Origin: Eubacteriales bacterium
GTDB taxonomy: Bacteria; Bacillota; Clostridia; Oscillospirales; CAG-272
Direction of reading: 5' to 3'
NCBI GenBank assembly: GCA_045644805.1
Contig: JAZRHO010000026.1
Coordinates: 1,483-65,482, forward strand
Length of the DNA: 64,000 nt
The position numbers were made by a program, and so were the translations under genes. The notes beneath the pieces are model-generated. The model was not told the DNA's origin and did not search any database. It worked only from the letters and a program-made list of their open reading frames with translations. Shown here piece by piece: positions 24,781 through 54,100 of this stretch (position 1 is its first letter; the number at the start of each line of letters is the position of its first letter).

Positions 24781-24822
24781 AGAGGTTTGCGCAAAATTTG
24801 CGAAAGCCTCTTTTATTTTTTA
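24781..24822 (+). terminator. Rho-independent terminator after comEB
   Basis: agaggtttgcgca / tgcgaaagcctct is a 13-position stem (1 mismatch, 1 G-U pair) with loop aaatt, then tttatttttt. Confidence 0.7.
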
Positions 24823-25961
24823 TCAAAATACGCTTTTATTTGAGAAAGAGGTGCGGTGTATGTTCCGCAAGCCATAGGAGCTCTGCCGCCGCCCTTGCCT
24901 CCTAGTGCAGCATTCGCATCACTAACTATTTCTCTGAAAGCTTCAGAAGAGTTCATAAGAATATACCTATAATCTCCCTCATTACCTGTAAGAGCAACCA
25001 GCGTTCCTTCGACCTTTTCGTGCGCGATATTGGCAAAGACTCGCAATGCGTCCATATTAAGCATTGGATAACAAAGCACGGCATTGCCGTGATGAATTGC
25101 AAGATTTTCCGCAAGAATCACAGCAGTTTCTCTGCCCATTTGTGAAAGCTTATATTCAATATTCGCCTTCGCCGAAAGAAGTCTTTCGGTTTCCGACTTT
25201 ATATCGGTGATGGGCGACGAAAGAAGGACCGAAACTCCGCTCGCCTCATCGGATATTTTCTTTATATAATCGTAGGCTCTTTTACCTGCCAGCATACGAA
25301 TACGGCTTCCCGCTTTATGCTTTACCGAATCAAGGAATTTTATAATACCTATCTCACCCGTAAAGGATACGTGAGGCGCACAGCATGCGCAGGAATCATA
25401 GCCGTCTATATCTACTATGCGTACGTCTTCGGTAAGCTCAAGCTTTGAACGGTAATTCAAGTCTGCAAGCTCATCGGGCAACGGATATTTAACCGTGATG
25501 GGAACGTTTCTATAAACGGCATCATTTGCCAACATCTCAATTCTATCAAGCATTTCACGAGTGACAACAACAGAGGTATCAAGGGTAACGTCAACACCGC
25601 CGAGATGGAATCCGACATTTTCGATACCGTATATATTATGAAGTAATCCCGATACTATGTGCTCTGCTGTATGACATTGCATTTTTTCAAATCTTTTCTC
25701 AAAATCAATCGCGCAATGAACGCTTTCATTTACATTTAAAGCATTTTTAGTGTAATGATAAACGTTTTTTTCAAGTTCCTTAACGTCAAAAACTGCAATT
25801 CCGTTTATATATCCTACATCAGAGCTTTGCCCTCCTCCTTCAGGAAAAAATGCAGTTTTGTCAAGGAGCACTTCATATCCGTTTTTTACCTTTTCACAGC
25901 TTATAACAACAGCATCGAACTCTTTTATATATGCACTTTTATTATATAGCTTTTCAGTCAT
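24813..25961 (-). CDS. AlaX-L type alanyl-tRNA editing protein (AlaRS-related, with a DHHA1 domain)
   Basis: HTAEHIVSG (HxxxH), CCAPHV (CxxxH) and the C-terminal GGKGGGRAPMACG. The ATG at 25961 overlaps the upstream gene's stop by 8 nt. Confidence 0.85.
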   Translation of the reverse strand: MTEKLYNKSAYIKEFDAVVISCEKVKNGYEVLLDKTAFFPEGGGQSSDVGYINGIAVFDVKELEKNVYHYTKNALNVNESVHCAIDFEKRFEKMQCHTAEHIVSGLLHNIYGIENVGFHLGGVDVTLDTSVVVTREMLDRIEMLANDAVYRNVPITVKYPLPDELADLNYRSKLELTEDVRIVDIDGYDSCACCAPHVSFTGEIGIIKFLDSVKHKAGSRIRMLAGKRAYDYIKKISDEASGVSVLLSSPITDIKSETERLLSAKANIEYKLSQMGRETAVILAENLAIHHGNAVLCYPMLNMDALRVFANIAHEKVEGTLVALTGNEGDYRYILMNSSEAFREIVSDANAALGGKGGGRAPMACGTYTAPLSQIKAYFDKK

Positions 25962-26652
25962 TTTTCTTTTCCCCTGTGTAAGATTTATATATTTCCTCTG
26001 AAAATTTATTCCACGGATATTCACTAACGGTAGGTATAACGGAGGCATTGATTTTCTCACCGAAAAGAGTGAATGAAAGCGAGCAGGCAAAAAGCGCGGG
26101 ATGCTTTGCGCTGAAATCTTTGCTTCCGTATTTTTTATCGCCTATAAGCGAATTTCCTCTCGATGAAAATTGCGCTCTTATCTGGTGGAATCTTCCCGTT
26201 CCAAGCTTTATAGCGCAAAGGGTGGCGTCCTGCTCCGATACTAAAATCTCGTTCCAAAGAACGGCTTCCTTTGCTCCCCGTCTCGCTGTCTTTGCTATAT
26301 ACGACTTTCCTGTCGCGCTGTCTTTGAAAAGGTAATCCCTATACTCTCCCTCGGCGCACCGACCGTGGCAAATTGCGAAATAGCGCTTATCCATTTCTCC
26401 GTCTGCGATTATACGTGAAAGCTCTGACGCGCTTTTTTTGTTTCTTGCAAAGGCTATAAGACCACCCACCGTTCTGTCAAGCCTATGAACAAGCCAAAGC
26501 GACGACTGCTCGCCAATACCGGAAAGGGCATTTGCCGCTGCGCTCATTGCATCAGCGTCGCCGGAAGGATCAGACTGCGATGGCATACCAACCAGCTTTT
26601 CAATTATAACTACATTTTTGTTTTTATAAATTATTTTGACGGAATCGGTCAT
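25954..26652 (-). CDS. RluA-family pseudouridine synthase
   Basis: HRLDRTVGGLIAFARNKK catalytic Asp block and GRFHQIRAQ. The ATG at 26652 has GGAG 7 nt upstream. Confidence 0.9.
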   Translation of the reverse strand: MTDSVKIIYKNKNVVIIEKLVGMPSQSDPSGDADAMSAAANALSGIGEQSSLWLVHRLDRTVGGLIAFARNKKSASELSRIIADGEMDKRYFAICHGRCAEGEYRDYLFKDSATGKSYIAKTARRGAKEAVLWNEILVSEQDATLCAIKLGTGRFHQIRAQFSSRGNSLIGDKKYGSKDFSAKHPALFACSLSFTLFGEKINASVIPTVSEYPWNKFSEEIYKSYTGEKKND

Positions 26653-26824
26653 TTTAATCTCCATTACTGCATGCAAAAAAATTTTTTAACCAATAAACCT
26701 GCATATTACCAATATCCGTATTTTATCACAGTTTACCCTATTTTTCAAGTATTATATAAAAAAGAGCCTGCTCAAAATTGCAAAATCGAGCAAGCTCTTT
26801 AAATAAAGAATCAAATATAAAATT

Positions 26825-29800
26825 TTAGTGCTTTGACGAGGTATGCGCGCGCTTTGCGCTTCCGCCCGTAAGTGCTATCATTTTTACAGCTGCCAAGCTA
26901 TACGAATTAGCGATAATGTTAATCGGTTTATCTATAACCCCGCGCGCAAGCACCTTGACGTATTTTGCATCTTTGGGAACTATGCCTTTCTCCTTCATAG
27001 TGTTTATATCTACCGTATCACCGGCGAGGAAGCTATTTGAAATTGTATCAACATTCACTATACAACGTTTTCGTCCGCTGGTTTTTATAACCGTAGGCGA
27101 ATCGGTAAGGAGATTTTTCGCAAGAAAATCAGGTATCAGACTGTTTGCATGCGCCTCGTCGACGGCAAGCAGAGTTTCGAGCGGCGGCTCATCCTTAATC
27201 TCGTTTTCATTCACAGTCTCGAAGCACGGCACTTTTTTTACAAATATCTTTTCTTTTACTGCCGTCGCTGCAGCAAAAACTTTTTTACGGTTTTTTACGG
27301 CAATAAAAATGCCCATAGCAAAGATGATAAAGAGCAGAAGTAATATAAGAATAAGCTGGATATTACCGCTTTGAGCTTTTGCTTTTGCGGGCAAAACTGT
27401 CACAAGATAATCAGAGTTCGCGCATTTAAGATACACGTAACCGTTATCGGTATAAAATTCTTCTCTCAGGCTGTCTCCTTCAACGATACTGCCTTCGGTA
27501 ACGGTAAAGCTATTGCCACCATCATCTATCTTGACGGTTATTTCCCTTCTTGCTATAATAAAGCTTTTTTCATTCACACCGTCTTTAAATACGTAGTTTT
27601 CCGTATCCTTAAGAATGAAGGAAACGGTATATTCACCTGCCGATAAGGCATGCGGAACGGATACGGTGTACAAAGAGCTTGGCGCAACATACGGAATATA
27701 AATGCTTCCGTTATACACGCCGGATTCAATCTGCGGTAAATCAACAACGCATTTTTCTATAATAAGCCTGCCCGATGGAATAACAGGCTCGAAATAATTT
27801 TCCGTATCATAGGAAAGAATCGCAGAAAGCTCGTATTCACCTGCATCCTTTGCGCTGTTCAGAATATAAGAGGAAACGCTTACGCCATCAGGCAATCCGC
27901 CGAGATAGGAGAATTTATATTCACCATCATAAATGAAAGATGCTTCGGACCAACAAACTGCGCTCATATCATATTGCGCGAGAGCGACGTCAATTTCGGC
28001 GCTTGTTTCAAATCCACCCGCGCTCAGATGTATTATCCTATCATTTGCCTTTAGGCATTCACCGTTTTCATATCTTATTGATATGTTTTCAAAATCTATA
28101 TAGCTTATGCTTTCGTCGTTATTTACGTAGTAAGCGCAGATATCATCGGATGTGATTTCGTTCATTGCCGTCAAGTTTTCGGACAGTATATTTACGACAA
28201 GTCTTATGGGACTTATCTTTACAACGTTAAACGTAAGAACCTTGCAAGAAATACCGAGATAATTCTGACCCTCGGGCACGTATGCCATCATATAATAGGT
28301 GCCCGCTTCTGTTGCGGATATGGGGTTTTTAAGCTCGGAATCGGAAAAATAGAAATAAACTGCTTCTCCGTATAAGGACTCTCCCAAAGGAGCCGGCAAA
28401 CCGCCCTCGTAATAATCTGAAATCTGAGGCTCGCTTATCCAATGGTTAGGCGCTTTTTCAATTACAAACGCCATTTGCGGATTAATTATTCTGTAATTCA
28501 GATCAGATGATGATGCGAGCGCAACATATTCTCCCGCATTTTTCGCACTTCCCGTAACGGTAACCGGGCACTCCTCGCAGAGCGCATTGGGTATATGATC
28601 CTGACCGTTATAGGTAAAGACAAGATTTTCCCATACAGCAATAACTCCTTTAGGCAAAATCTTAACGTAAACGCTCATATCAGCGGGAACAACATAATTT
28701 TTACTGTCCGTACCAAAGCTTATAACAACTTCTACACTTCCCTCAGCAACATAAGTCACTCCTTGTGAAAAGCTGTAAAAAGGAACGCTTCCGTCAAGAC
28801 CTATAGGCAAGACTCCGTACGATGACGGAAAATGTGCTTGTCCGTCAAAGGTATATTCGCTGTCCGAAAAACCAAATGATGACCAGTCATATTCTATTGG
28901 AGTAATTTTCCAAGTGTGAGTTATAGGATTTGGCGCGTTGTAATTCTTAGTATCATAAATGATAGTTACCGATGTAGTATATTCACCTACGTCGGTAAAT
29001 GATGAATCCGCGTATCCTACAAGTGTTACGTTTTTCGGTAGTCCGTAAATTTGCACGGACTGGACCTCTCCGTTATAAGGCAGACTGTCGGCGCTCCAAT
29101 ATACGTCTTTTAAATCAAGCTCCGCTTTCAAAATTTCAAAATCAACGGTTGGATTTATAAGCGTATAGTTCTTATCTGTGAAAATTGCGGACGCTGTATA
29201 TTTGCCAGCGTCAGTAGCACCTCCGCTTACCGCAACAGATATTAAAAGTCCCTCTGCGCTCACAAGTTCAGCCGTGGGAATTTTAGGCGCTCCGTCATAC
29301 GTAAAGCTTAGGTTTTTATAATTTACGTAAACGGGCAAGGGTTTAATGGTAAGCGTCGCGCTAACGGAATCGGGTAAATTATAATTTACACTCTCCGTAA
29401 AAAATGAAATCGTGACCGTGTAAGTTCCTACATCTATGCCACCTCCGGAAACAGTATATTCGAGCTTTATTCCGTCAAGCCCGACAATATCTGCGCTTGC
29501 GTCTATTGTATGTCTTTTACCGTTATACGTTGATACCTTATCCTCAAATACCAGAGATGATATATCATAATCCGCTGCTCGCACAGTCACGGCAATCGGC
29601 ACCGAAGCATCACCTACACGAATAATAGCACAGCTATCGCAAACACGGAATGAATCTGCCGTTTTATATTCTATCTCAACAATGTCAGTATCGATTTTTT
29701 CACACCTTCCGCTATTGTAAGTGACCGAAAATTCAGCGCCCTCAAGCGAAAGAGTTTCAAAGGCTTGATATTCGGTCTTGTCGGGATATTTATCAACCAT

Positions 29801-31672
29801 AATACCCACGCATATTTCGGAAAAAATTTCAAAAGCTATCGGCTCGGAAGAAAGCGATGTATAGTTTTCAGTGCCGTCCACGCTTATCAAAATATAATAT
29901 TTACCTGCTTCTGAGGGGATATCGCTTTGCCAATTTACACCGTCGGAGGAATACATGTAGTAACACTTACCGAATTTTGCTTCCGCTGTGACAGACAAAT
30001 CAAAGCCTACATAGGTATCTTCAACGTTTGGAGGCGATAAAAAACAATTTTGGGCTTGAGTAATATAAAACGTAAGATTAACGCTCTCAGCACAAGAGTC
30101 TTCCCACTTGTAGTTTAACGGGTCAGTAAGAGTGAGAGTTACCGCATATGCTCCTACGCCTATTCCACCGGATGAAAACGAGGTATAAAGACTCGACTTG
30201 GGAACATCGGGATAAACGGTGCCCCCGGTATAAGCAAGCGAAGGAATCGAAGGATATTTTAGCGTTTGTTTTTCTATATTAACTGCTACTTCAGGAGTAT
30301 CTACTACAACATAATCACCGTTATATGCAAATGTTAGTTTACAAAAATAGATTCCCGAGTCTGATACAGACGTGATTGATATACTATCTGAGCTGTAAAT
30401 TGTAGGGGCGGAATCTTTATACCAAACAAAGCTAAAGCTCCCCTCCTCTGCCAATGGGTGAGTAAGCTTATCAAATCCGAGAATATGTTCTTTTCCATCG
30501 TAAACGAAACTTTTTGAACTTATTGAAAATTCGGGTGGAGTAAGTGAAAATGATGCGTACAAATTGAAATCAGAGTATTCAAGTGTCCCAAACGCATATG
30601 ACTCATTTAAGGCGCTGTCCTTATACCAACCGCAAAAATTATATCCCTGCTTCAAAGGCAAATCAGGAGCCGAAATGCTTTCACCCTTTAAAAATTCAAC
30701 AGTAAAATACAAGGTGTTATCACAATAAAATCTAGCACACAGTGGCATATAAACAGCAATAAATGATTTTTCTTCGCTGTATTCGGATGAGGAAAAATAC
30801 GAAAGTGAAATGGCCTCGCCCACTTCATCAAAAAAATTTATATTTTCCAAATCACTCTCTTTTGCATTATGAAACACCTCAACGAAGGTACCGTTATCAA
30901 AGCTTTGATTATACATAACAGAAAAGGTAGCGGAATTTGGAATTTGGCACGCAGTAAGGCTTATGGGTTTGTTTGTTATAACGTCGTAGCTGTAACTGTT
31001 AAATTCAGGCGCACCGCCTATGCTTAAGCTGGCTTTATTTTCAATTGCGGGACCGTAGCTGTTTTTGATTTTTCCGGAAATGATTTCTACGCTTCCCATA
31101 CTGCAGTTAACTGCTCCATCAGTGGTTTCAGAGGTTATTTCCATACCATCAATTATGAGTTTTGAAGAGGCGGAATAATCAAGCAAAAAAGCGGAGCTTG
31201 AATAAGAATAAATTTCTCCACCTAGCGCCTTTGTTATGCCACCCTTTATCTTTAAAGATCCTCTTGTAATATTGAGGCTGAAATCATCAAGAATTATATT
31301 TTCCCCGCAAAGATTTAGATTACCGTCATACATTTTAAGAGCCCCGCAAAGAGTCACACTTTTACTTACAGTAATACTGCCGTGGTAGTCGAGCGACGAA
31401 AAATAAAGCACAACTCCATCACTTTCAATTAACGTGATAAGAGAAGAAAGATCGCTATCGGTTACGCTTACTTCTCCGAGATTTGCGGTATATGCGCCAT
31501 TTGCGAACTCAATTATGTATGAGACCGCGCTGCTATAATCTGCCGTAAGATTAATGGAACCAATATCTTTTTCACTGACCTTATAATCTTCTTCGCAAGA
31601 ATCAACTCCTGAGAACAAAAAAAGGACTGAAAAAGCAATAACAGCTCCAAGAATTTTGAACTTCAATTTCAT
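26825..31672 (-). CDS. Giant (1615 aa) single-pass surface protein. Domain order: signal peptide, beta-helix-like region, Listeria-Bacteroides-type repeat, >=12 MBG-type repeats, TM helix, cytoplasmic uL15-like tail
   Basis: The ATG at 31672 has an AAGGAG RBS and the signal peptide MKLKFKILGAVIAFSVLFLFSG. FCGWYKDSALNESYAFG repeat. Reiterated Y(D/N)G...(D/N)(A/V)G(K/E/T)Y...NY modules. TM segment IQLILILLLLFIIFAMGIFIAV, followed by a 156-aa tail. Confidence 0.85.
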   Translation of the reverse strand: MKLKFKILGAVIAFSVLFLFSGVDSCEEDYKVSEKDIGSINLTADYSSAVSYIIEFANGAYTANLGEVSVTDSDLSSLITLIESDGVVLYFSSLDYHGSITVSKSVTLCGALKMYDGNLNLCGENIILDDFSLNITRGSLKIKGGITKALGGEIYSYSSSAFLLDYSASSKLIIDGMEITSETTDGAVNCSMGSVEIISGKIKNSYGPAIENKASLSIGGAPEFNSYSYDVITNKPISLTACQIPNSATFSVMYNQSFDNGTFVEVFHNAKESDLENINFFDEVGEAISLSYFSSSEYSEEKSFIAVYMPLCARFYCDNTLYFTVEFLKGESISAPDLPLKQGYNFCGWYKDSALNESYAFGTLEYSDFNLYASFSLTPPEFSISSKSFVYDGKEHILGFDKLTHPLAEEGSFSFVWYKDSAPTIYSSDSISITSVSDSGIYFCKLTFAYNGDYVVVDTPEVAVNIEKQTLKYPSIPSLAYTGGTVYPDVPKSSLYTSFSSGGIGVGAYAVTLTLTDPLNYKWEDSCAESVNLTFYITQAQNCFLSPPNVEDTYVGFDLSVTAEAKFGKCYYMYSSDGVNWQSDIPSEAGKYYILISVDGTENYTSLSSEPIAFEIFSEICVGIMVDKYPDKTEYQAFETLSLEGAEFSVTYNSGRCEKIDTDIVEIEYKTADSFRVCDSCAIIRVGDASVPIAVTVRAADYDISSLVFEDKVSTYNGKRHTIDASADIVGLDGIKLEYTVSGGGIDVGTYTVTISFFTESVNYNLPDSVSATLTIKPLPVYVNYKNLSFTYDGAPKIPTAELVSAEGLLISVAVSGGATDAGKYTASAIFTDKNYTLINPTVDFEILKAELDLKDVYWSADSLPYNGEVQSVQIYGLPKNVTLVGYADSSFTDVGEYTTSVTIIYDTKNYNAPNPITHTWKITPIEYDWSSFGFSDSEYTFDGQAHFPSSYGVLPIGLDGSVPFYSFSQGVTYVAEGSVEVVISFGTDSKNYVVPADMSVYVKILPKGVIAVWENLVFTYNGQDHIPNALCEECPVTVTGSAKNAGEYVALASSSDLNYRIINPQMAFVIEKAPNHWISEPQISDYYEGGLPAPLGESLYGEAVYFYFSDSELKNPISATEAGTYYMMAYVPEGQNYLGISCKVLTFNVVKISPIRLVVNILSENLTAMNEITSDDICAYYVNNDESISYIDFENISIRYENGECLKANDRIIHLSAGGFETSAEIDVALAQYDMSAVCWSEASFIYDGEYKFSYLGGLPDGVSVSSYILNSAKDAGEYELSAILSYDTENYFEPVIPSGRLIIEKCVVDLPQIESGVYNGSIYIPYVAPSSLYTVSVPHALSAGEYTVSFILKDTENYVFKDGVNEKSFIIARREITVKIDDGGNSFTVTEGSIVEGDSLREEFYTDNGYVYLKCANSDYLVTVLPAKAKAQSGNIQLILILLLLFIIFAMGIFIAVKNRKKVFAAATAVKEKIFVKKVPCFETVNENEIKDEPPLETLLAVDEAHANSLIPDFLAKNLLTDSPTVIKTSGRKRCIVNVDTISNSFLAGDTVDINTMKEKGIVPKDAKYVKVLARGVIDKPINIIANSYSLAAVKMIALTGGSAKRAHTSSKH

Positions 31673-31718
31673 TTTTTTACTCCTTGCTTTTGGAAATAAA
31701 TTCCACTTTTTATATAAA

Positions 31719-31747
31719 ATTATATCCGCAAAATTCTCAAAACTCAA
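31719..31747 (-). promoter_or_regulatory. Sigma-A promoter candidate for the giant surface protein gene
   Basis: Minus strand: TTGAGT (31747-31742), 17 nt, TATAAT (31724-31719). Confidence 0.5.
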
Positions 31748-42556: not shown

Positions 42557-43558
42557 TTAATCTCTTCTTTGATAGAATATAAACGTAGAAGCAATTGCCG
42601 CAACCGCTGCTATGATAAGCATAATGATCACGAAATATATCCATGACATTGCCGTAGCGCTATACGGATCTGCTCCATATGCGGTATTGATATACTTTAT
42701 CATAATATTCTGCGAACGTGTAAACGCGTCGATTATCGTATAAACAGTGTTTACAAGTATCATGGGCGAGATCATCGGGAAGGTTACCTTCCAGAAGGTT
42801 TCCCATCCTGTTGCACCGTCTATACGGCATGCTTCGTAAATCGACGGAGATATCGACTGAAGTCCTGCAAGGAATATCAACATCTGAACACCGGAGTAGT
42901 TTATGATGTTATAAACGTTGTTAACAAGATCAACAACGTATGCAACAAGCTCTCCGCCAACCTGCATATTCGCAAACAGCTTTTCTACGTCAAGAGTTGA
43001 TATGATCTGACTTGTGGTGTTTGAGCCTGAACCGTCATCAATACCATCCTGCGAAACGCCTGACATAATATCACCTGCGTTAATTGTTTCCATAATACCT
43101 GTTGAAACAATAACGGGAAGGAAGAATATTGCACGGAATGCCGCGCGACCAAGCATTTTCTGGTTAAGAACTACCGCTATAAACAGCGAGAATATTATAA
43201 CCGCAGGAACTTCAAATATAAGCTGCTGAATACCTGCAACAAGATTTGTTACAAATGTAGAGTTATTTGTAAATGCTTCAATATAATACTTAAATCCTAT
43301 AAATTCATACGTTGTCGGATTGGTCTTATATATCGGCTTACTCATACTGAACCATATTGAGTCAAGCAGAATAGGAAGATAGATAAAGAGCACTCCAATG
43401 ATAAAAGGAAGAACAAAGGCATATCCTGCACGAGCTTTTCTTGCATCAAGCGAAACCTTTTTGCGAGGCTTGAGAAGACCGTCATTGCCAAGCTCGCCTG
43501 AATCTATAACGGGAGCTGAAACACCGAGTCCTTCAGATGCATTAATATTTTCACTCAT
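42557..43558 (-). CDS. Sugar ABC transporter permease (MalF/LplB-like), pair 2
   Basis: EAA loop YEACRIDGATGWETFWKVTFPMISP. The start ATG overlaps the upstream stop as TAATG. Confidence 0.88.
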   Translation of the reverse strand: MSENINASEGLGVSAPVIDSGELGNDGLLKPRKKVSLDARKARAGYAFVLPFIIGVLFIYLPILLDSIWFSMSKPIYKTNPTTYEFIGFKYYIEAFTNNSTFVTNLVAGIQQLIFEVPAVIIFSLFIAVVLNQKMLGRAAFRAIFFLPVIVSTGIMETINAGDIMSGVSQDGIDDGSGSNTTSQIISTLDVEKLFANMQVGGELVAYVVDLVNNVYNIINYSGVQMLIFLAGLQSISPSIYEACRIDGATGWETFWKVTFPMISPMILVNTVYTIIDAFTRSQNIMIKYINTAYGADPYSATAMSWIYFVIIMLIIAAVAAIASTFIFYQRRD

Positions 43559-46500
43559 TACTCATTACCTCCTTCTGCTTTTATAGTTTGATACTCATAT
43601 TTGCCAAGAGTATAAATTTTTCCTCCAAGGTTAACGTCTACCGAGTAAATATTGTAGTTAAGTATGAACATTGTTCCGTCGGAATAGGTTACAAGCACTA
43701 TATTACCGATATCGCTTGTATAGTTAGTGTACTTGTAATCACTGCTGTCATCTGTTGCAAAAGAGTCGGTAACAAATGAATATTCGGATTCATAGCTGAT
43801 AGCATCAATAGTGACTGCCTTCTCATTAACTCCACCGTTTCCGTTATATTCATTTTCATATTTAGCTGCGACTTCGTCAAGGGATACACGTAGTAGCTCC
43901 CAGATTTCATCGGGGAGATTTATTCTCTGAGCCGTTTCATCATAAACGCAGTTAATTTCCTGAGCAAACCATTTAAGAAGCTTTTCGGTGTCAACGTTCA
44001 CCTTAAGCGCGCATCCCCATTGCTCTGAGGACTGCTTAAGTGCTTCATACTCATCGTGAACACGAGCGGAAATCAAAGCATCAAGCTCTTCAACGAATTC
44101 AGCTATAAGAAGTTTATAGTTCTCTTCCCATTCGGCAACTTCTATAACACGCTCGCCCTTAATAATTCTATGATCTGTTATCTTGCATTTCTGAAGACCG
44201 CCGATAGCACTGTTCAGCTCGCTATACGTAATAAGGATATTATCATGCCATGTGCTGTAATCTACTCCGTAGTATTCACTAAGGAGCTCGTCTTCCTTCA
44301 TGTGTCCTATATTGTCACTCTGGAAAGCAAGTATATAGTAGAGCGATGCGCCAGATTCGATAGCACGAAGTATATCGTAAGCTGTTGTACCTGAATAGTT
44401 TATCGGAGTTCCTGTATAATTTACAGAGCCGTGAAGTACCATGCCTACAAACGGAACAGTATAAGATGAGTATGCAAGATGGCTCGAATCAATATTTGCA
44501 TTGAGAATATGATCTGCATATTTAAGTGAGTAAGCATTTCCCTTATCAAGCATAATATCAAGGTTATCTGTGCCTGACATTTTTTCAAGAACAGCAGTTA
44601 CATAACCTTCAGCCTCATCGCGGTTGACAGGCTGCTTTTTATCAAAGTTAGAGTTCAAATCAGAACCGAGAGTAGATACCGAAATAGCACTGATTTCATA
44701 TTTCGAGTACTTCTTGATGAATTTAGAGTAAAGCTCCTCAAATGATTCCGGATTTACAACAAGTGAATAAAAGCTTTCATATTCCTGAAGAACGGAATTG
44801 TAAGATTGCTTCGATGCATAACGGTTATCAACCATTCGCGAAACATTGCCTTTAATTCTGATACCGTCGGATGCCGAGGTATTGTTTATGTATGAAAAAT
44901 CGAAATCGGGATATATGCCGAAGTTTGAGCCTTCTTTAGCGGATACAGATTCCGCCGTTTCAAGAAGGTTTCTAAGGCCCTTCTTTCCGCCACAGGCTCT
45001 GCTCCACTTGATCTTTGTGGGATAGGTGGAATAAAGACCGCCGTTAGCAAAACCGGTAAGACGGAAATTAATGTTGGTTATATTCTGTATCTGCGAAACA
45101 AGATCTCTGCAATCTTGAGCGGCAGCAGCATACTGAAGCTTTTCGTATTCTTCAGTTGACTCCGCGGCAAGCTTATCATACTCAGCAGCCTTCGCGGTAT
45201 ATATCTCTACTGCGCCCGAAAGCTCTTCATAGATAGTAGCTATATCCTCAAACTTTGTAAGAGGAATAGAAGTTTCTACAGGGAATGTAAGAATTTTCTT
45301 AACGATATCCATTGCTCCGAGAACTTCTATATAGAGAGGCATATCATCTGTTACCGTTTCAAGAGCGGAAAGCGTACCGTTTGCGTAAAGATAATCGCGG
45401 TAGTAGTTTACCATACCCATATAAGAAGAAACGTATCCCGATTTAACAGTATTATCAACCTTCTCATCTGTAAGCATAGCGTATCTTGTTACGTAAGATC
45501 CGTTATATTTCGATTCGGAAACTATTTTGTAAGAAACAGCACCTCCGACAGAAACTGTCTCGGAGAGGTCGTACTCATCAGCAGGGTAAGGAGTGTATGA
45601 GCAATATACATGACCAAATCTGTAAGTCAAACCGCCCATCACGAATTCGAGATTTGCAAGAGATGCTCCCTCTTCGATTATAGCGAAGTAACCGTTGGTT
45701 ACTCTTTCAACGCCGTATGCAAGTGATGTGCTGGCGTTCGCATCATCCTCGGTAACAAGACCGAAGACAGGCATTGTTATCTGCTCTCTATGCTCGCCCG
45801 TTATATTGGAATAACAGTAATCTGTTCCGTATACGGTTGCAGTAACGTGAGGCCTGCTTGATGCAAAATCCTCAAACTCCGAAACAGCTCCGCTTCCGTC
45901 AGGATAGAAGATGTATCCCTCCTCATTAAGATCGCCAGCACCAAAGTAAGGAAGCACAGAAACCGAATCAAGCGTATATACGGTTTCATCAAATGAAATC
46001 GAGCTTGCGGGAAGACGAACGCAGAGGCTTCCATCGCTATTGAAGCTATATTCAAGTGAACATGTGAAAACAGGCTTTTGCTGAGTTTTATCAACATATC
46101 CAAGCTCTTCCTCATCCTCAAGCATTTCTGACAAGGTATATGAGCCGCAATATTTACGGAAAAGATTCGATGCCTGACTCTTAACCGCATTGTCTTCTAT
46201 CTTTCTAAGCTCATAAACAGGTATGCCATAAACATCACTGGAAGTTTTAAGCGTGTAGTACGCCATTATTGTATTAATGTCCGTATGCAAAGCGCTGATG
46301 GCTTTATATCCTGCCGAGTTTTCAGGCAATTTCGAATATACGGTTTTCATTGCTGAGAGATATTTTCTCATGCCTGAGATGTAAAGATATCCATCCTTGT
46401 AGAGCTGAGAACTATATTCTTCATACTCAAACGGATTATATTCGCCGTTATAATCCGCACCGGCACAATGCTCTTCCATAAGAGAGCAGAGCTCCTGAAG

Positions 46501-47091
46501 CATCGGAACAAGTATCATTTCTTCGTACTTCTCTGCTTTAAGCACTCCGGGGAGAAGATATCTAACCGTAGTATCGCCGAGAGTGTAGTTTACTCTTATA
46601 CCGCTGCTTATGTATTCGGTAGTGATTTGACCGCGCTCAGCAGCCCACTCTGATGAACTGTAAACATTGGGCGTACTCGTTGCAATAACAGAGAAATTAA
46701 TATTAAGCTGGCTTAACAGTTCTCTGTTTGTCTTCTCTGAGTTAGCGGTATAATACCATGGATTACTTGTAAGTATCTGACCTGTAACTCTGTTTTGATA
46801 ATAAAGAACTCCTGTATATGCATTTACATATATAGCATATTTTCCATCAGCGGATACGAGAGGTCTCAAATATCCAAGAGAATTTTCGTATATCAGCATT
46901 TCTTCCGCTGTTTTGAAGTTATACGTGGTATATACCTCAGTTACATACGCGGAAACATCATCAGGTGAATTCAAAGAATTCTCTGTGTTTGCGATATATG
47001 CCGCATCAGCTTTAGTTGGAAACAGCACGAAAATGGAGCTGAACACCATAACGAGAGCTAAAGCAGACGATAATATTTTATTAAGTTTCAT
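43558..47091 (-). CDS. 1177-aa secreted protein of unknown function (possibly a DUF5696-type exoprotein)
   Basis: SPase-I type signal peptide (MKLNKILSSALALVMVFSSIFVLFPTKADA/AY) and a GGAGG RBS. I see no catalytic or binding motif by eye. The family name is a recollection, not a search result. Confidence 0.8.
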   Translation of the reverse strand: MKLNKILSSALALVMVFSSIFVLFPTKADAAYIANTENSLNSPDDVSAYVTEVYTTYNFKTAEEMLIYENSLGYLRPLVSADGKYAIYVNAYTGVLYYQNRVTGQILTSNPWYYTANSEKTNRELLSQLNINFSVIATSTPNVYSSSEWAAERGQITTEYISSGIRVNYTLGDTTVRYLLPGVLKAEKYEEMILVPMLQELCSLMEEHCAGADYNGEYNPFEYEEYSSQLYKDGYLYISGMRKYLSAMKTVYSKLPENSAGYKAISALHTDINTIMAYYTLKTSSDVYGIPVYELRKIEDNAVKSQASNLFRKYCGSYTLSEMLEDEEELGYVDKTQQKPVFTCSLEYSFNSDGSLCVRLPASSISFDETVYTLDSVSVLPYFGAGDLNEEGYIFYPDGSGAVSEFEDFASSRPHVTATVYGTDYCYSNITGEHREQITMPVFGLVTEDDANASTSLAYGVERVTNGYFAIIEEGASLANLEFVMGGLTYRFGHVYCSYTPYPADEYDLSETVSVGGAVSYKIVSESKYNGSYVTRYAMLTDEKVDNTVKSGYVSSYMGMVNYYRDYLYANGTLSALETVTDDMPLYIEVLGAMDIVKKILTFPVETSIPLTKFEDIATIYEELSGAVEIYTAKAAEYDKLAAESTEEYEKLQYAAAAQDCRDLVSQIQNITNINFRLTGFANGGLYSTYPTKIKWSRACGGKKGLRNLLETAESVSAKEGSNFGIYPDFDFSYINNTSASDGIRIKGNVSRMVDNRYASKQSYNSVLQEYESFYSLVVNPESFEELYSKFIKKYSKYEISAISVSTLGSDLNSNFDKKQPVNRDEAEGYVTAVLEKMSGTDNLDIMLDKGNAYSLKYADHILNANIDSSHLAYSSYTVPFVGMVLHGSVNYTGTPINYSGTTAYDILRAIESGASLYYILAFQSDNIGHMKEDELLSEYYGVDYSTWHDNILITYSELNSAIGGLQKCKITDHRIIKGERVIEVAEWEENYKLLIAEFVEELDALISARVHDEYEALKQSSEQWGCALKVNVDTEKLLKWFAQEINCVYDETAQRINLPDEIWELLRVSLDEVAAKYENEYNGNGGVNEKAVTIDAISYESEYSFVTDSFATDDSSDYKYTNYTSDIGNIVLVTYSDGTMFILNYNIYSVDVNLGGKIYTLGKYEYQTIKAEGGNE

Positions 47092-47108
47092 TCTATTTAC
47101 CTCCTGCT

Positions 47109-49271
47109 CTAAGCTCGGTTTGCGATTTCTGTTATTATGGACATTACGAACATTACCATCTTAGCAAGAAGGCTTGAGAACAGTATTGCAACGAACATAA
47201 TTACTACCATCGCAACTATTGTACAAATAACGATAAGAAGGTTCTTTGAAAGTGCGTAATCGTGAATTACGAGAGTTCCGAAGAACAGAAGGAATGCAAC
47301 CCAGATATAACCAAACGTTACAAGAAGGTTAACCATAGAGCCTTCGGAAGCTGTAAGAACATTCGTAAGAACCGTAGAAATAATTACAAGAAGAGGAAGG
47401 GGCGTGAGAGAATACGTAGTAGCAATGAAGATATCCTTAAAGCTTCCTTCACCTTCAAAGAGCGTTGTCAAACACCAGTTGCCTACACACCAAAGGAGTA
47501 CGGGAACACAAATAGCAGCTACCTGAACAAAAATGGTAATGTAGTTATCTCTGGGATTGAAGATATATCCGCGACCTACGGACTGATAGAAGAACGCGAT
47601 TATTGTTACTGCCATAATTGTCAGACCGCCTCTTACAGAGCCACGCTTTTCATGCTTAAGATCCCAGAATCCGTCAAACGGATGCATCCATACATGGAAT
47701 GCGTAAAGAAGCTCTTCAAGATAAGTCTTCTTTCCGACCTTAAGAGATACTGCTTTGTTCTTCTTCTTTGCCCAACCAAGGAATTTAACAAATCCTACGA
47801 CAAGAGCAATCACAAGAATGATAATGGGAATGAGCCATCCTTTGCCAAGGAAATCTTTACGGGTTTCCGCAAATGCCTCGGAATACTGCTCGGTTTCATA
47901 TGCCATAGACAGCATTTCCATAGCGCCTTCATAATCACCTTGGCTGTAAAGAGCTTTACCGATACCGATATAAGCTAAGTCAAAGTTGTTGTTCTTTGTA
48001 AGAACTGCCTGCCAATAGGTTATAGACTCACTGTATTTATGCTCGTTCTGGTTGCGAAGAGCTGCCATGATAGTATCACAATACTCTGTTGGTGAATATA
48101 CCGTAATACGATATCCTAGAGTTGAATTATCAAGAGCAAGAAGGTAATTCGTACCGTCAACATAATGATATGTGATGGCAACCATATTAAAGCCCTGACC
48201 AAGCTGGCTACCTACGTTACTGAACTTACCGCCGTCGCCAAATGCAAACAGAAGGTTACCGTTCTGGTCATAGGTGAATATACGGGAACGGTGATTATCA
48301 AGAATAGACCATGAGCCCTCTTGACCGACAGCAACGACGACAATGCTTGAAACACCTGCATTGCTTCCGTTGACCGCAACCTCTCCGCCCGGATCAAAGA
48401 ATCCGTTACGCTTCATTATCTCATCGCCTGCAGAGTTAAGCTTTTTAACAGGCGAATACGTAGCAGACTTTGATTTAATAGCAGCAGCTTGCTTCAATTG
48501 GTCAAGCTTATTGTTCGTTATATAAACGAAACCGTCTTCATCAATGGTGATATTGTTATAAGAAACAGAAACGTTAGATGCCTGGCTGGCTCTTTGCTCC
48601 GGACTTTGGAATCTTCTCCAAATCATCTGAATAATAGAGTACGTAGCGCGCTGAGCACCGATAAATCCTGTAAAGTCACCGTCGCTTGACATTACGATAA
48701 CGCCTTCATAACAAGACTTAGATACTACGAAAATTCTTCCGTATTGGTCTACAGCTATCGAAGTAGGTGAAAACGCCTCCGACGAAAGAAGAGCAGACTC
48801 AGGTTTGTTAAGCGTCTTTACATAAGAGTATCCGTTCACTCTGTCAAATACTACGATTCTTGAGTTACCCGTATCGCATACGTAAACGAGGCCGTCTCTT
48901 GCAAATACGCCTTGAGGAGCAGACAATTTCTGTTCTCTGCCATATTCATCGACGTATTTGTCAATAGTAGCGATATAGGAGTAATACTTGTTAAGCACAA
49001 CTATTCTGTTATTTGCTGTATCCGCTATGTAAACATTGGAAACTTCATCAGTCTCTAAGTCGGATACTTCATTACCAAGGGATACTTTAAGACCCATATC
49101 GTTAGAATCTACAACGATATTGGGATCATAGGCGGTAGGCGACATAAGAGGCTCACCGTCTATTGAATAGGTATACGTATCATAAGCACTGTATGCCGAG
49201 GAATAAACGGTTCCGAAGAGCATCACGAGTACCAATGAAAGAATCAAAATCTTTGCAATTTTACTTTTCAT
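47109..49271 (-). CDS. Signal peptide - NHL-repeat beta-propeller - TPR - Yip1-type polytopic membrane domain fusion protein
   Basis: NHL-like blades (ADTANNRIVVLNK, CDTGNSRIVVFDR, IAVDQYGRIFVV, DEDGFVYITNN, HRSRIFTYDQNGNLLFAFG). TPR-like YIGIGKALYSQGDYEGAMEMLSMAY. Then about 6 TM helices with a Yip1-like pattern. Confidence 0.8.
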   Translation of the reverse strand: MKSKIAKILILSLVLVMLFGTVYSSAYSAYDTYTYSIDGEPLMSPTAYDPNIVVDSNDMGLKVSLGNEVSDLETDEVSNVYIADTANNRIVVLNKYYSYIATIDKYVDEYGREQKLSAPQGVFARDGLVYVCDTGNSRIVVFDRVNGYSYVKTLNKPESALLSSEAFSPTSIAVDQYGRIFVVSKSCYEGVIVMSSDGDFTGFIGAQRATYSIIQMIWRRFQSPEQRASQASNVSVSYNNITIDEDGFVYITNNKLDQLKQAAAIKSKSATYSPVKKLNSAGDEIMKRNGFFDPGGEVAVNGSNAGVSSIVVVAVGQEGSWSILDNHRSRIFTYDQNGNLLFAFGDGGKFSNVGSQLGQGFNMVAITYHYVDGTNYLLALDNSTLGYRITVYSPTEYCDTIMAALRNQNEHKYSESITYWQAVLTKNNNFDLAYIGIGKALYSQGDYEGAMEMLSMAYETEQYSEAFAETRKDFLGKGWLIPIIILVIALVVGFVKFLGWAKKKNKAVSLKVGKKTYLEELLYAFHVWMHPFDGFWDLKHEKRGSVRGGLTIMAVTIIAFFYQSVGRGYIFNPRDNYITIFVQVAAICVPVLLWCVGNWCLTTLFEGEGSFKDIFIATTYSLTPLPLLVIISTVLTNVLTASEGSMVNLLVTFGYIWVAFLLFFGTLVIHDYALSKNLLIVICTIVAMVVIMFVAILFSSLLAKMVMFVMSIITEIANRA

Positions 49272-49281
49272 TTTGCCCTCC

Positions 49282-50157
49282 TTAATCCTTCATACCCGAA
49301 GATCCCATCGTTTCGATAATCTGGCTCTGGTTAAGCACGAATACCAAAATAGGAACGAGCATCATAACAACCGTAGATGCAGCGCCTGCACCTGAACGTG
49401 CAATACCACCCGAAAGAATCTGAGAAATCGCGTAGTTGAAGGTTTTTAATTCCTCTGAATGAATGTAAATGGATGAGCCTGTGTTCCAAAGGTTCTTGAA
49501 GCACTCAATAATAAGAGTCAACCATGCGGGTTTAACCATGGGCATTGCGATAATCAAATAAGTTCTGAACTCGCTTGCTCCGTCAAGACGCGCAGACTCA
49601 AGAACAGTATCAGGAACCGATGTCTCCATAAACTGCTTCATAAGGTAAAGACCTATCGTCGTTGCCATAGACGGAACTATAATAGCAAGATAGGAATCTA
49701 TCCAACCGAATGCGGAAAGAATGATGAAGTGCGTTACCTGGTTAACTGTGGAGTGGAACATAAGAGATGCAACTATGATTTTGAATATGGCATTTCTTCC
49801 GGGGAAACGAAGCTTAGCCAATGAATAAGCAGCCATAGATGCAAATATAAGGTTACCTACAGTACCGCAAAGAGTGATGAACACAGTGTTGAAAATATAT
49901 CTTGAGAACGGTACCCAAGAGTCACCCATGAGTGTAAACAAATCTGAGAAGTTCTCAAGAGTCGGCTTCATAACGTAAAACTTAGGTGGGAACATGAAGA
50001 GCTCATCGAGAGGCTTCAAGGATTGAACTATAACGTAGTACATGGGCAGGAACATGAACAGACCGAAAATCGTAAGCAATATGGTTATACCCACATCGCC
50101 TCCGGCTGAACGGTTTAAAACGACTCGGTGGCCTCTGGTTCTTAATTTTTTCGCCAT
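49282..50157 (-). CDS. Carbohydrate ABC transporter permease (MalG-like), pair 1
   Basis: EAA loop LESARLDGASEFRTYLIIAMPMVKP. The ATG at 50157 (TGAtATG with the upstream stop) is preferred; the GTG at 50166 is an alternative. Confidence 0.88.
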   Translation of the reverse strand: MAKKLRTRGHRVVLNRSAGGDVGITILLTIFGLFMFLPMYYVIVQSLKPLDELFMFPPKFYVMKPTLENFSDLFTLMGDSWVPFSRYIFNTVFITLCGTVGNLIFASMAAYSLAKLRFPGRNAIFKIIVASLMFHSTVNQVTHFIILSAFGWIDSYLAIIVPSMATTIGLYLMKQFMETSVPDTVLESARLDGASEFRTYLIIAMPMVKPAWLTLIIECFKNLWNTGSSIYIHSEELKTFNYAISQILSGGIARSGAGAASTVVMMLVPILVFVLNQSQIIETMGSSGMKD

Positions 50158-50158
50158 A

Positions 50159-51109
50159 TCACTCACCTACCTTCGAAAGGGCCTTCTTAATAATGTTATT
50201 TGAAGCGTACATTATTACAAATAAGACCACGGCTATTGCGGAAGCATAACCTATTTCATAACGCGCACCGCCATAGTCATCAAGATGGTGCATTATTGTA
50301 TGCGCTGCATAGTCGACCGACGGGAATCCGCAAAGTGCGGTAACTACCGATCCGAAGACGAAAGAGTTGGTAATAGCAAGAACCGCACCGAACATCATCT
50401 GAGGACGCATGGTAGGAAGGGTTATGTACCAAAGCTCCTGCCAACGGTTTTTGATACCGTCAACCGCAGCCGCTTCGTAAAGAGAACGGTCAATAGTCTG
50501 GAATCCTGCTATGAAGGACAGGAACGCAGTACCAAGAGACGTCCAAAGAGCAACTACTATACAAAGAGGCATTACGTAATCCGCATCCTCAAACCACAAC
50601 ACAGCCTCGGATATAATTCCAAGGTCAATAAGAGTTGCGTTTACCCAACCGTACGAGTCGGACGAGAAGAGCGTCTTCCATATAAGGTATACGTTACCTG
50701 ATATCGAAGGAGCATAGAATATAAGAGTTACTACAGCACGAAGCTTGGGGGGAAGCTCGTTTATGAACCACGCGATAAGCAGCGAAAGAAGGTATGATAC
50801 AGGACCTGTTATTGCCGCGAATATCAACGTGTTCTGACAAGCGAGAAGGAATATATCGTCATCAAAGAATAGACGGGTAAAGTTGTCGATTCCCACAAGA
50901 TGGGGCATCTGCAACATGTTAAAGTCCGTAAAACTCAAAATCATCGAAAGGAAAACCGGAAGAATGGTAAAGATGATGAACAAAAGGAAGAACGGTGCAA
51001 GCATGAAATATGCCGTCTTATTGTTTTTCATCTCTTCCCAGGTCCAACGGAGCTTCGACACTTCAGAGCGTTTTACAGGACGAGTTGTCTCTGCATTAGT
51101 CTGTGACAT
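50159..51109 (-). CDS. Sugar ABC transporter permease (MalF-like), pair 1
   Basis: EAA loop YEAAAVDGIKNRWQELWYITLPTMRP. AAGGAG RBS. Confidence 0.88.
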   Translation of the reverse strand: MSQTNAETTRPVKRSEVSKLRWTWEEMKNNKTAYFMLAPFFLLFIIFTILPVFLSMILSFTDFNMLQMPHLVGIDNFTRLFFDDDIFLLACQNTLIFAAITGPVSYLLSLLIAWFINELPPKLRAVVTLIFYAPSISGNVYLIWKTLFSSDSYGWVNATLIDLGIISEAVLWFEDADYVMPLCIVVALWTSLGTAFLSFIAGFQTIDRSLYEAAAVDGIKNRWQELWYITLPTMRPQMMFGAVLAITNSFVFGSVVTALCGFPSVDYAAHTIMHHLDDYGGARYEIGYASAIAVVLFVIMYASNNIIKKALSKVGE

Positions 51110-51144
51110 TTATGTATCTCCTTATAAAATCTCGAATTATTACA

Positions 51145-54100
51145 CTATTCAATCGGTAAAGGATCGCCGATCTCAAGATTAAACTCAAGTCTCTTGCGCT
51201 CAATCTCGGCATTAATATCGTCGATGTATCCCGTCATAGCGTCAATCGGATCCGCACCGTCGTTTACAACGTCAAGGAATGCAAACTTGGTATATCTGCC
51301 TATAATATAAGATCCGGGGTAGTTAACTATGGAAGAAAGAGAACTCATCTGCTCCATGATAGCCGCCTTTTCGCTCGCGGTCCATGAAAGGTCGTTAAGA
51401 GCCTTAAGGTTAGCAGATTCATACTTAGCCGAAGGTCCGATTAGCGCAACCATTCTGTTACCGTACTCGGACTGAACCTTTGCACTGGTTTCCCACTGCA
51501 TAAACTGCCATGCGGCAAGTACGTCATCACAACCGTGAAGCATTACCGTTGCTCCGATACCTGCAAGAGAGTCATAGTTGAATATCTTGTTGCCTTCAGC
51601 ATCAAGCTTGTAATTACCGTCGGAGTCAAGCACGTAGCTTCCGGGAAGCGAGGTAAACTCCCAAAGACCGGATATTTCGGTAGCATATACAACAAGCTGG
51701 TTGTATATTCCTGCATAATCACCGATAATTATGGGCATTTCACCCGTTCTGAAACGGTTAGCCGCATCATAGCTTACAGGGAATGAATAGTCACTGTACA
51801 AACGGCAGACATAGTCAAATGCCTCAAGAGCAATCGTTGAATCAAGGTCTACCTTTGATCCGGCATAGTCTTCATTATCGGTATATTTCCACATGTTACC
51901 GCCCTTCTGATAAATCATAAAGTCGATAGCGGAGATATAGTTTACACCAATAGACATATTGTTTGACTGAAGCACAGGCAGAAGAGAAAGGAGCTCATCC
52001 CATGATTCGGGAACCTCTTCTCCAAGCTCCGCAAGAACGTCCATACGATAGAACATCATAGCAAAGCTCATAGTCTGCGGAATACCGTACGTAGTTCCGA
52101 GAAGTCTTATGGTATCCATAGCTGCCGGTGCGAAATTATCCGCGATTACATCTTCAAAGGAGTTGGATACGAACGAGAGTCCGTCTTCACCCTTATATTC
52201 TGTTGTAGGCTCAAGATAATTTCCGTCAGCGTCTTTATATGTATAATAAGTGGAAGAAAAAATTTCGTTGTATTTACTGTATTTGCTGTCCTCGGAGTAA
52301 GTACCGCTTACACCCATAACAGCGTCTCTTATAGCATAATTGATTACGTCCGAAGCACCAAGTCCCATATAAACGTCAGGACCCTTGCCCGAAAGAATTG
52401 AGGGAAGAAGCGTTCCGCCCGTTACCAGCTTTAATGTTACCGCAACACCTGTGGAGCTGGTAAAGCTTCCGTCAGCGTCGATAAGAGAACGCCAGATCTG
52501 AGACTGATCGCGTCCTGTAGCGAGCCATACGTCTACACTCTTTGTGGTTTCGTCAGGCTTTTCCTCAAGACCCATCAAGTCGTAGTCAACTATGAAGGAA
52601 TAGAAGAAGGAGCTTATTTCAAATCCTACTGACTTAAAGAAGCCTGCTTTTGCTCTTGGAATATCCTTTTCATTCGAGTCCGATGCGCAAATGTAAATAG
52701 AGTCCACGAGCATTGAGCTTGTCTTGGAATTATTTATCCACGTACCGAGAGTACCGAGATAAGACTTAAGTGTTGACATATTTGCCGCGATATAAATACC
52801 TTCGTCTGATCCCATCTTATCAAGAAGAATCGCTATTGTTTCAAGCGTTGCGGTATGAGAGCCCGCGCCTTCGCTGCAAAGGCTGTCAAGCTCATCCTTA
52901 ACCTTCATAAGCTCTTTAGCCTGCAAAAGAAGCTCGTAAAGAACCTCAGGCATTATTCCGCGGAAATCATAATCACGGTATTCATCGGGATCGTTACCCG
53001 TAAGCTGGAGTATCTTAAGGTAACAATCGTTTATCTTGTTCATTGAGTTCTCGACTCTCTGAATAAGCTCTTTAAGGCTTCCGAGAGAGCACTCGAGATA
53101 AATCGTATACTCTTCTCCTTCCTCGAAGTAGAACTCAAATGCATCGTGATTTGCATCGGTAATATAAGTAGACTGCCAATTCTTGTCGTATTTGAATTCG
53201 GCACTGTACGCATCCTTGAACGGAACCACCGGAGAATCTCCGTAATCTCCGCCCGAAAGCTTAATCGTACGGCAAACGTACATACCCTGAAGAGCCGTCT
53301 GCTTGTATCTCATGCCTATCTTGTAGAAGCCGGACTGATTTACCGTGAAATTGTACGCAGCCCACTGTCCTACGGTATTATAGCTGTTCTCGCCTATTAC
53401 GTTGTAAAGCTGAGATTTTGAAATGGAGGGATAAGTTTCTGCCGATGAGTTATCATTCGTAGCATAAACAGAGGAGTCTGATACGTAATCAGGGAATTCA
53501 GCCTCAATTCTGATAGGAGCTACATCTTCCTTCGATACGGAAGTATCACCGTATTTTGCTTTTGCATCGGCAATGTACTGCTCATAGGATTTGAGCGCCG
53601 TCAAATCGGAATTGCTTACCGGAACAAGCTCCACAGACGCAATTATCATAGGCTCTCTTATTGCTTCAAGGGTAATTGTACGAGTACCGTTGAGCATATA
53701 GAAACAGAAGTAGCTGTGATAATCTTCGCCGATCTGATAGCCGGTATAATAACCTGTGTTATCCTGGCAATAATATGTGTTCCACTCCGGAACCTGAACT
53801 GCTTCCGGTGCCATCGAGTTACCGTTGATATCCTGCTTTATTCTGTGCTTTGTAACCGTTTTCTTTCCGTCCTTAACGACGGTAACAATTTTATATGAGC
53901 CGGCTTCCTCGCCATCCTTTTCTTTACCTGTGGCAATATGCTCATACTTCACGTCGTAAGAATCAGGCTCTCCGGGAACGTCAGTAGTATCAACGCTTAC
54001 TACATCATTGTATTCCCATGCCTTTGTAAACTCAAGGCTTCCTGCCTCGGAGAAAGGAAGCGTGCCGTCGATGAGAAGCTTTCTCTCGATTGAGCTTATA

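Follow-up and report, generated by a model that had tools for sequence, protein, structure and literature searches.

What is a domain resembling half of a ribosomal protein doing at the inner end of a giant surface protein? The question is raised by a gene in a 64,000-nucleotide stretch of DNA (the window) from a bacterium of the Eubacteriales (GenBank assembly GCA_045644805.1, contig JAZRHO010000026.1). The gene occupies 26825..31672 on the minus strand, as do all parts of it located below, and encodes a predicted type-I membrane surface protein of 1,615 amino acids (aa) when read from the ATG at 31672, the start used in the public protein collection; the longest open reading frame for the gene, from the first TTG, spans 26825..31747 and encodes 1640 aa. 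A single, strongly hydrophobic transmembrane (TM) helix (IQLILILLLLFIIFAMGIFIAV; 27296..27361), followed by KNRKK, is succeeded by a 156-aa tail (27295-26828) that ends at the stop codon at 26825-26827. The initial annotation of this DNA quoted the helix and the end of the tail, proposed that the latter resembles the C-terminal half of ribosomal protein uL15, and suggested that it may tether the nascent chain or the ribosome at the membrane, bind RNA or serve as a signalling or partner-binding module. The quoted strings are present letter for letter, and the 156 residues after a single TM helix are confirmed. Our results indicate that the tail is a true uL15 homologue that belongs to a large, diverged family of membrane-protein end-pieces, and that a docking function away from the ribosome is, on balance, probable.

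Homology of the tail to uL15

The relationship to uL15 was detected both in sequence and in predicted fold. The Pfam model Ribosomal_L27A (PF00828), whose gathering cut-off is 21.5 bits, matched protein residues 1563-1631 over profile positions 1-71 of 72; the score was 40.2 bits with the full-length sequence and 44.2 bits (expectation value, E, of 2.7e-11) when the tail was searched by itself. A profile built from 41 tails matched solved uL15 chains with an E of 5e-14 over chain residues ~72-144, while comparison with the uL15 proteins of relatives by hhalign paired tail residues 46-121 (of the last 129) with uL15 residues 70-144 at a probability of 98.6 % (E 7e-16, 75 columns). Identity between the tail and the true uL15 of the genus is about 31 %. 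Modelling with AlphaFold2 on the 41-tail alignment produced a confident single domain (predicted local distance difference test [pLDDT], 91.8; predicted template modelling score, 0.81). When this model was compared with the PDB by Foldseek, the top 50 matches were all uL15, uL15-family or eL18 chains at probabilities of 0.99-1.00; the match to 5o60_M had a root-mean-square deviation of 1.2 Å over 71 columns with 37 % identity.

These results bear out the proposed likeness: the tail and the globular, C-terminal half of bacterial uL15 are genuinely homologous. The homologous domain comprises 76 aa (26852..27079, as placed by Pfam, hhalign and Foldseek), has a net charge of +7 and bears the signature AVKMIALTGG. 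A similarity confined to low-complexity residues, which the initial annotation had named as a refuting outcome, is not what we observe: the columns common to the tail and uL15 (N54, F62, G65, V68, D69, K87, L89, G92, K96, A102, F105, S106, A109, I113, G117 and G118) form the core of the fold. In the terms of SCOP, where the fold is listed under 'ribosomal proteins L15p and L18e', the tail shares with uL15 (RplO; PF00828, TIGR01071) the beta-beta-alpha superhelical core together with its core residues.

Departures from ribosomal uL15

It is possible that the module mimics uL15, binding 23S ribosomal RNA at the uL15 site or on particles free of uL15, and so holds large subunits at the membrane, beside the anchors of giant secreted proteins. 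The homology and the fold are genuine, the domain is basic, the adjoining gene encodes an RNA pseudouridine synthase, and membrane-anchored proteins that bind the 50S subunit are known in Escherichia coli, namely YqjD, ElaB and YgaM (10.1101/2024.08.16.608256). Were the module to dock on ribosomes or ribosomal RNA, large subunits, pre-50S particles or ribosomes without uL15 would be tethered by proteins as small as 400-aa anchors and as large as the giant adhesins, and the translation machinery would be linked structurally to the anchors of surface proteins. However, the anatomy of the module argues against this proposal. The Gly/Arg-rich N-terminal extension of uL15 threads the protein into the 50S subunit. 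This extension (GRGxGSGxGKTxGRGHKGQ..., rich in Gly, Arg and Lys) is absent from the tails, its columns all being gaps in the joint alignment. The rplO equivalog model TIGR01071 scored 33.7 bits with the whole protein and 38.9 bits with the tail, far from its whole-protein cut-off of 77.95 bits, and was matched at positions 72-143 only of its 144. Lysines 120, 124, 133 and 135, conserved in the uL15 of relatives, are replaced in the tail by P, Y/I, V and M, respectively, and five residues that are invariant or near-invariant in the tail family (K74, R91, D95, K111 and M112) have no counterpart in canonical uL15. The last helix, AKEKIEAAGG in uL15 and AVKMIALTGG in the tail, has become hydrophobic through the replacements K133V, K135M, E137A and A138L.

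The tail has also gained parts. An acidic helical hairpin with the motif VDxxxADxLISDxxAKxL (in its family form, VDxxxA(D/N)xLIxDxxAKxL) precedes the uL15-like part and lies in a family-specific N-terminal portion of the module (LETLLAVDEAHANSLIPDFLAKNLLTDSPTVIKT; 27080..27181). The AlphaFold2 model gives this portion two short helices (20-26 and 29-35) and a β-strand (37-45) at a pLDDT of 94-96, and predicts that it folds with the uL15-like part as one domain. An origin of the hairpin from the N-terminal region of uL15 was considered, as MAFFT had placed its 'LAKxL' under 'LYRKL', and was rejected; the hhalign match stops at uL15 residue 70. The module closes with a short basic tip, RAHTSSKH in this protein (26828..26851) and usually a Lys/Arg-rich run in relatives. 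The net charge of the uL15-like part averages +3.5 across the family, against about 0 in canonical C-terminal domains, and mean charges are -2.5 for the hairpin and +2.4 for the tip. The context differs as well: canonical rplO encodes a free-standing protein of ~145 aa between rpmD and secY, whereas the domain described here, with its hairpin and tip and without the N-terminal arm, is fused to the end of a 1,615-aa membrane protein encoded between an aminotransferase gene and an RluA-like gene.

Because the extension is missing, the lysines are replaced and the hairpin is predicted to co-fold with the domain, the module is unlikely to occupy the place of uL15 on the ribosome. Judged by its sequence, with no arm, a TIGR01071 score below the cut-off, replaced lysines and an added hairpin, the module is not a ribosomal protein. 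The long stem that separates the tails from canonical uL15 (see below) points the same way. The tail is translated after all other parts of the protein; on this reasoning, it cannot guide the synthesis of its own chain, and tethering of that nascent chain, as suggested initially, is implausible. Taken together, we regard retention of ribosomes at the membrane by uL15 mimicry as very unlikely.

The E. coli proteins provide the nearest published parallel to ribosome tethering. YqjD, ElaB and YgaM are C-tail-anchored, and their cytoplasmic N-terminus binds the 50S subunit and tethers it at the tunnel exit (10.1101/2024.08.16.608256). They resemble the carriers of the uL15-like module in being membrane anchored with a cytoplasmic part; unlike the carriers, they are small and without ectodomains, have their TM helix at the C-terminus whereas the anchor here is N-terminal to the module, and contact the tunnel exit rather than the uL15 site. 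There is no sequence relationship: a Pfam scan of the tail at E <= 1 returned PF00828 only, and the Pfam domain of the YqjD/ElaB/YgaM family is, we presume, DUF883.

Three relatives of the protein (P0040, P0066 and P0108; 950-1,500 aa, from metagenome-assembled genomes [MAGs] of Clostridia) are named 'uL15 family ribosomal protein' in NCBI. Entries under this name represent the same protein family, labelled automatically from the same domain match, and the ribosomal role that the name implies is contradicted by the anatomy of the proteins. Carriers are repeatedly mislabelled as ribosomal proteins in this way, and counts of ribosomal-protein markers in MAGs can be skewed as a result. Full-text searches (uL15/L15 with membrane and Clostridia/Firmicutes; PF00828 with transmembrane) found no paper for 'uL15 family ribosomal protein' and none on the module; one seeming match proved to concern another accession. 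We know of no description of the L15/L18e fold outside ribosomes. In the present family, the domain has been duplicated, has lost its RNA-threading arm and gained a new helical cap, and has spread through abundant but uncultured Clostridia of the gut and rumen, where it forms the cytoplasmic end-piece of hundreds of membrane-protein families.

A paralogue family in uncultured Clostridia

The initial annotation called such a fold unexpected on an adhesin-like protein and proposed a survey of Clostridia membrane proteins with the tail. Such a survey shows that this adhesin is no isolated case: the tail belongs to a large family of paralogues found at the end of unrelated membrane proteins, some of which lack an ectodomain altogether. 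A word-indexed protein search found 124 proteins (clusters) with the tail, spanning 918-2,074 aa; the counts of layout given here cover 120 of them. The motif A[VI]KMI occurs ~20 aa from the C-terminus in 120/120, and a strong TM helix lies 143-1000 aa before the C-terminus in all of the same 120. An exhaustive profile search found 484 clusters (50 % identity) at E <= 1e-30 and 1,619 at E <= 1e-10, and the match reaches the C-terminus in every hit among the matches listed. In a species-level genome set, 118 genomes encode the module; 80 of these genome records were nearly all from uncultured gut MAGs (ruminants, chicken and Hadza people). The module was confined to two genera in an even sample of 399 Clostridia genomes. 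Copies in giant proteins (40-56 bits) were found in 14/25 genomes of the same genus and in 0/16 other families of the order.

The protein from the window belongs to this family by its motifs: its hairpin motif VDEAHANSLIPDFLAKNL and last-helix motif YSLAAVKMIALTGG fit the family signatures (FSLxAVKMIxLTGG for the last helix). Invariant columns in the 41-tail alignment are A23, F62, K74, G92, A102, A109, K111, M112, I113, L115, G117 and G118, and A32 is conserved at 90 % or more. In a tree resting on 80 alignable columns only, all tails fall on one side of a split supported at 95/100, on a long stem and apart from canonical uL15. A canonical uL15 gene (open frames of ~147-209 aa, 57-79 bits) is present in nearly all of 40 relatives, with rpmD and secY fragments beside it. 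No separate rplO was seen in the assembly that contains the window; since rpmD and secY are also missing, the whole rpmD-rplO-secY stretch being absent from an assembly that is only 84 % complete, we attribute this to an assembly gap. The tail is thus a member of a diverged paralogue clade that coexists with a normal rplO and does not replace it. One small N-terminally anchored carrier (L113; G259:C13, a 446-aa open reading frame) has a canonical-looking last helix, FSSEAKEVIEKAGGTIVKI, without the AVKMI signature, and its tail lies on a long branch on the canonical uL15 side of the tree; it may represent an intermediate, or the domain may have been captured independently.

The lack of a separate rplO might also be read as a sign that an rplO fragment has been fused to a surface-protein gene by mis-assembly or by a mistaken gene call. 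Against such an artefact, the same fusion recurs in the 124 protein clusters and the 118 species-level genomes, and twice in this genome; the reading frame is open, without internal stops; and the tail shares too little identity with the real uL15 of the genus. The recurrence of the fusion, together with the loss of rplO as part of a longer missing stretch, rules this explanation out for practical purposes.

Two other candidates were rejected. A free-standing, soluble form of the module was sought among the short hits; the one short 'representative' that was traced proved to be a contig-edge fragment, with its frame open to the contig end, and hence short hits are not acceptable as stand-alone proteins. 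An origin of the tail in a defence system or a phage was dismissed; there was no PADLOC or PHROGs match.

Carriers and possible function of the module

Conservation along the protein was measured as the median identity to the window's protein over 60 full-length relatives. It was 67 % for the uL15-like part, 50 % for the hairpin, 40 % for the ectodomain, 27 % for the TM helix and 24 % for the linker. The uL15-like part is therefore under the strongest constraint in the protein and, as the best-conserved part of these giant proteins, the module must do something that selection cares about.

The proteins that carry the module are diverse, comprising giant repeat adhesins, helical-repeat surface proteins and small N-terminally anchored proteins without an ectodomain. 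In relatives, linkers range from ~30 aa upward, and the region between the TM helix and the C-terminus extends to 1,000 aa and is often acidic. The second carrier of the same genome (C90:518-6448, plus strand, on another contig) has 1,976 aa. Its ectodomain is of a different kind, and it has a signal peptide and a single TM helix; its cytoplasmic region of 674 aa contains acidic linkers, two copies of a domain that we refer to as 'YNRSF' (~180-660 and ~910-1390 of locus L001, whose positions 1-1722 are the 3' part of the gene) and the uL15-like module (...FSLQAVKMITLAGGTAKQYM). Several carriers hold one or two 'YNRSF' copies between the membrane and the module, and small carriers of another family consist of an N-terminal anchor, an acidic leash, a 'YNRSF' domain and the module only. 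A metagenomic protein of 523 aa (P0122) combines an N-terminal anchor and a diverged 'YNRSF' domain with two uL15-like modules in tandem (PF00828 twice, 85.9 bits). In the case of a 401-aa small carrier (L110/L117, G259:C14), a same-strand gene begins 6 bp downstream; the C-terminus of its product (...GISRSYISRIEKRAIEKA...) resembles, by eye, what we take to be region 4 of a sporulation-type sigma factor.

The 'YNRSF' domain has ~150 aa, the motif (Y/R)xRSFxxRLIQ…KYHFxDVS…LKYAxELI and no Pfam family, and was found in 6/301 sampled Clostridia genomes; a homologue search that started from P0122 returned only one relative. Homology extends to PDC-S18, a PADLOC candidate, in the C-terminal part of the latter (E 7e-14). 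Its AlphaFold2 model (pLDDT 93.4) is weakly like YdhG/DUF1801, YjbR and the MotA DNA-binding domain (Foldseek probability 0.57-0.99, template modelling score 0.37-0.60, E 0.04-0.06), a modelled likeness that may give a faint hint toward nucleic-acid binding. A third 'YNRSF' protein of the genome (contig C66:7-375, minus strand) has two TM helices with ~220 aa between them, and its contig ends within the domain.

We consider it somewhat more likely than not that this non-ribosomal paralogue of the uL15 globular domain has been put to new use as a cytoplasmic docking module on a membrane leash. A compact end-module of ~110 aa, composed of the acidic helical hairpin, the basic uL15-fold domain and the basic tip, would hang off the membrane anchor by a linker of variable length and would hold the inner end of the membrane protein to a conserved cytoplasmic partner. 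Docking would occur through a family-specific surface and not through the ribosomal contacts of uL15. We infer a docking role because the module is portable across unrelated carriers, including ectodomain-free ones, is extremely conserved and has family-specific invariant residues, is borne on acidic leashes of variable and often great length and is duplicated in tandem in P0122. As to the partner, we can only guess at a polyanion, the preferred class being RNA, DNA or possibly the anionic face of the membrane. The identity of this partner would show how giant surface proteins couple to the cell interior.

Several observations weigh against docking as described. The idea of a nucleic-acid partner derives only from net charge, ancestry and the weak fold match of the 'YNRSF' domain. 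The hairpin may pack over the former uL15 surface at the last helix, as suggested by the hydrophobic replacements there and not by coordinates. No binding partner was identified among the gene neighbourhoods examined, which yield no consistent candidate, the RluA-like and AlaX-like genes next to the carrier lying within a collinear housekeeping region. Finally, a folded domain behind a TM anchor would also be accounted for by a simple mechanical 'stopper'.

Such a stopper would be a passive anchor, in which any stable, hydrophilic and basic domain fixes the type-I topology and retains a 1,400-residue ectodomain where wall anchoring by sortase is impossible. The module is always C-terminal to the TM anchor, and its basic character fits the positive-inside rule. 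Sortase (PF04203) was found in 0/25 genomes of the genus and 0/2 carrier genomes of another genus, while 8/9 sister families of the order have it. The protein resembles LPXTG/sortase-anchored proteins of Gram-positive bacteria in its giant repeat ectodomain and in a C-terminal hydrophobic segment with basic residues after it; it differs in that the helix is followed by 156 aa that include a folded, conserved domain, in place of a few basic residues, and in the lack of an LPXTG motif before the TM helix, where the sequence is VLPAKAKAQSGN and is not conserved in relatives. However, about half of Clostridia do without sortase, which was present in only 69/150 (46 %) sampled genomes; complementarity between the module and sortase was not significant and was rejected. 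A stopper would need neither 67 % identity nor invariant residues of surface type, and it leaves unexplained cytoplasmic regions that reach 1,000 aa, carriers that have no ectodomain to retain and the tandem duplication of the module in P0122. Hence, we judge a passive anchor to be unlikely, although not negligible.

Signal relay was also considered. Load or a ligand on the ectodomain would lead to cleavage in or near the membrane, and the freed module would then act on RNA or translation. The architecture alone, with a sensor-like ectodomain, a single TM helix and a conserved cytoplasmic domain, speaks for this possibility. However, neither a partner protease nor a conserved cleavage motif was seen, conservation along the protein is lowest in the TM helix and the linker, and some carriers have no ectodomain with which to sense; we give this explanation very little credence, less even than ribosome retention.

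Layout of the protein and its topology

The N-terminus in the public collection, MKLKFKILGAV..., opens a hydrophobic, signal-like segment (MKLKFKILGAVIAFSVLFLFSGVDSC; 31595..31672). The ectodomain of ~1,410 aa (27362..31594) begins with a region rich in beta structure and also contains a Listeria-Bacteroides repeat and repeats of the Ig/MBG type; in a Pfam scan, PF09479, the Listeria-Bacteroides repeat, matched residues 353-398 with 39 bits, above the Pfam cut-off, and the matches to Ig_2 and MBG_3 were weak. PF18887 and PF07523 are carried by the proteins of relatives. Between the TM helix and the module (26828-27181 as a whole, C-terminal to the helix) lies a poorly conserved linker of 38 aa (27182..27295), predicted to be cytoplasmic.

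A cytoplasmic location of the tail, as assumed from the outset, is suggested by the signal-like N-terminus, the one TM helix and the positive-inside distribution of charge, and relatives agree: a signal-like segment is present in 112/120, and Lys and Arg are enriched after the helix relative to before it in 104/120. Most relatives have one strong TM helix, and a second hydrophobic stretch is found in one subgroup. In this subgroup (P0106-P0119, with helical-repeat ectodomains), the second stretch has 35-45 aa, follows soon after the first TM helix and lies between basic residues. Either a re-entrant hairpin or a second span would fit; a second span would place the module outward.

Genomic neighbourhood

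Downstream of the giant gene lies an RluA-family pseudouridine synthase gene (25954..26676, minus strand; PF00849, 87.6 bits). An RluA-like gene has the same position in 72/80 related loci, and an AlaX-like gene (tRNA_SAD/DHHA1) is present in 65/80; in the window, the two together span 24813-26676 (minus strand) after the giant gene. The 148-bp gap between the giant gene and the RluA-like gene contains no terminator-like site, and a promoter-like site is located in it at 26748-26720. Thioredoxin, thioesterase and radical-SAM genes are also conserved around the locus, and the second carrier of the genome has other neighbours. As the surrounding genes are conserved too and the neighbours of the other carrier differ, the RluA-like and AlaX-like genes are read as inherited gene order, that is, synteny by descent. 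A functional link between the tail and the RluA-like gene was therefore rejected, given housekeeping genes conserved on both sides, the different setting of the second carrier and the promoter-like site between the two genes. In 41 loci, a multi-pass membrane protein of ~250 aa is encoded directly downstream of the giant gene, at a median distance of 77 bp.

Elsewhere in the window, a run of large genes extends over 43558-54564 (minus strand). One of them encodes a DUF5696 protein of 1,177 aa (425 bits), another a protein of 720 aa that combines an NHL/beta-propeller with a Yip1 membrane domain, and a third a protein of 1,139 aa without a Pfam match; two genes of the size of ABC permeases belong to the same run.

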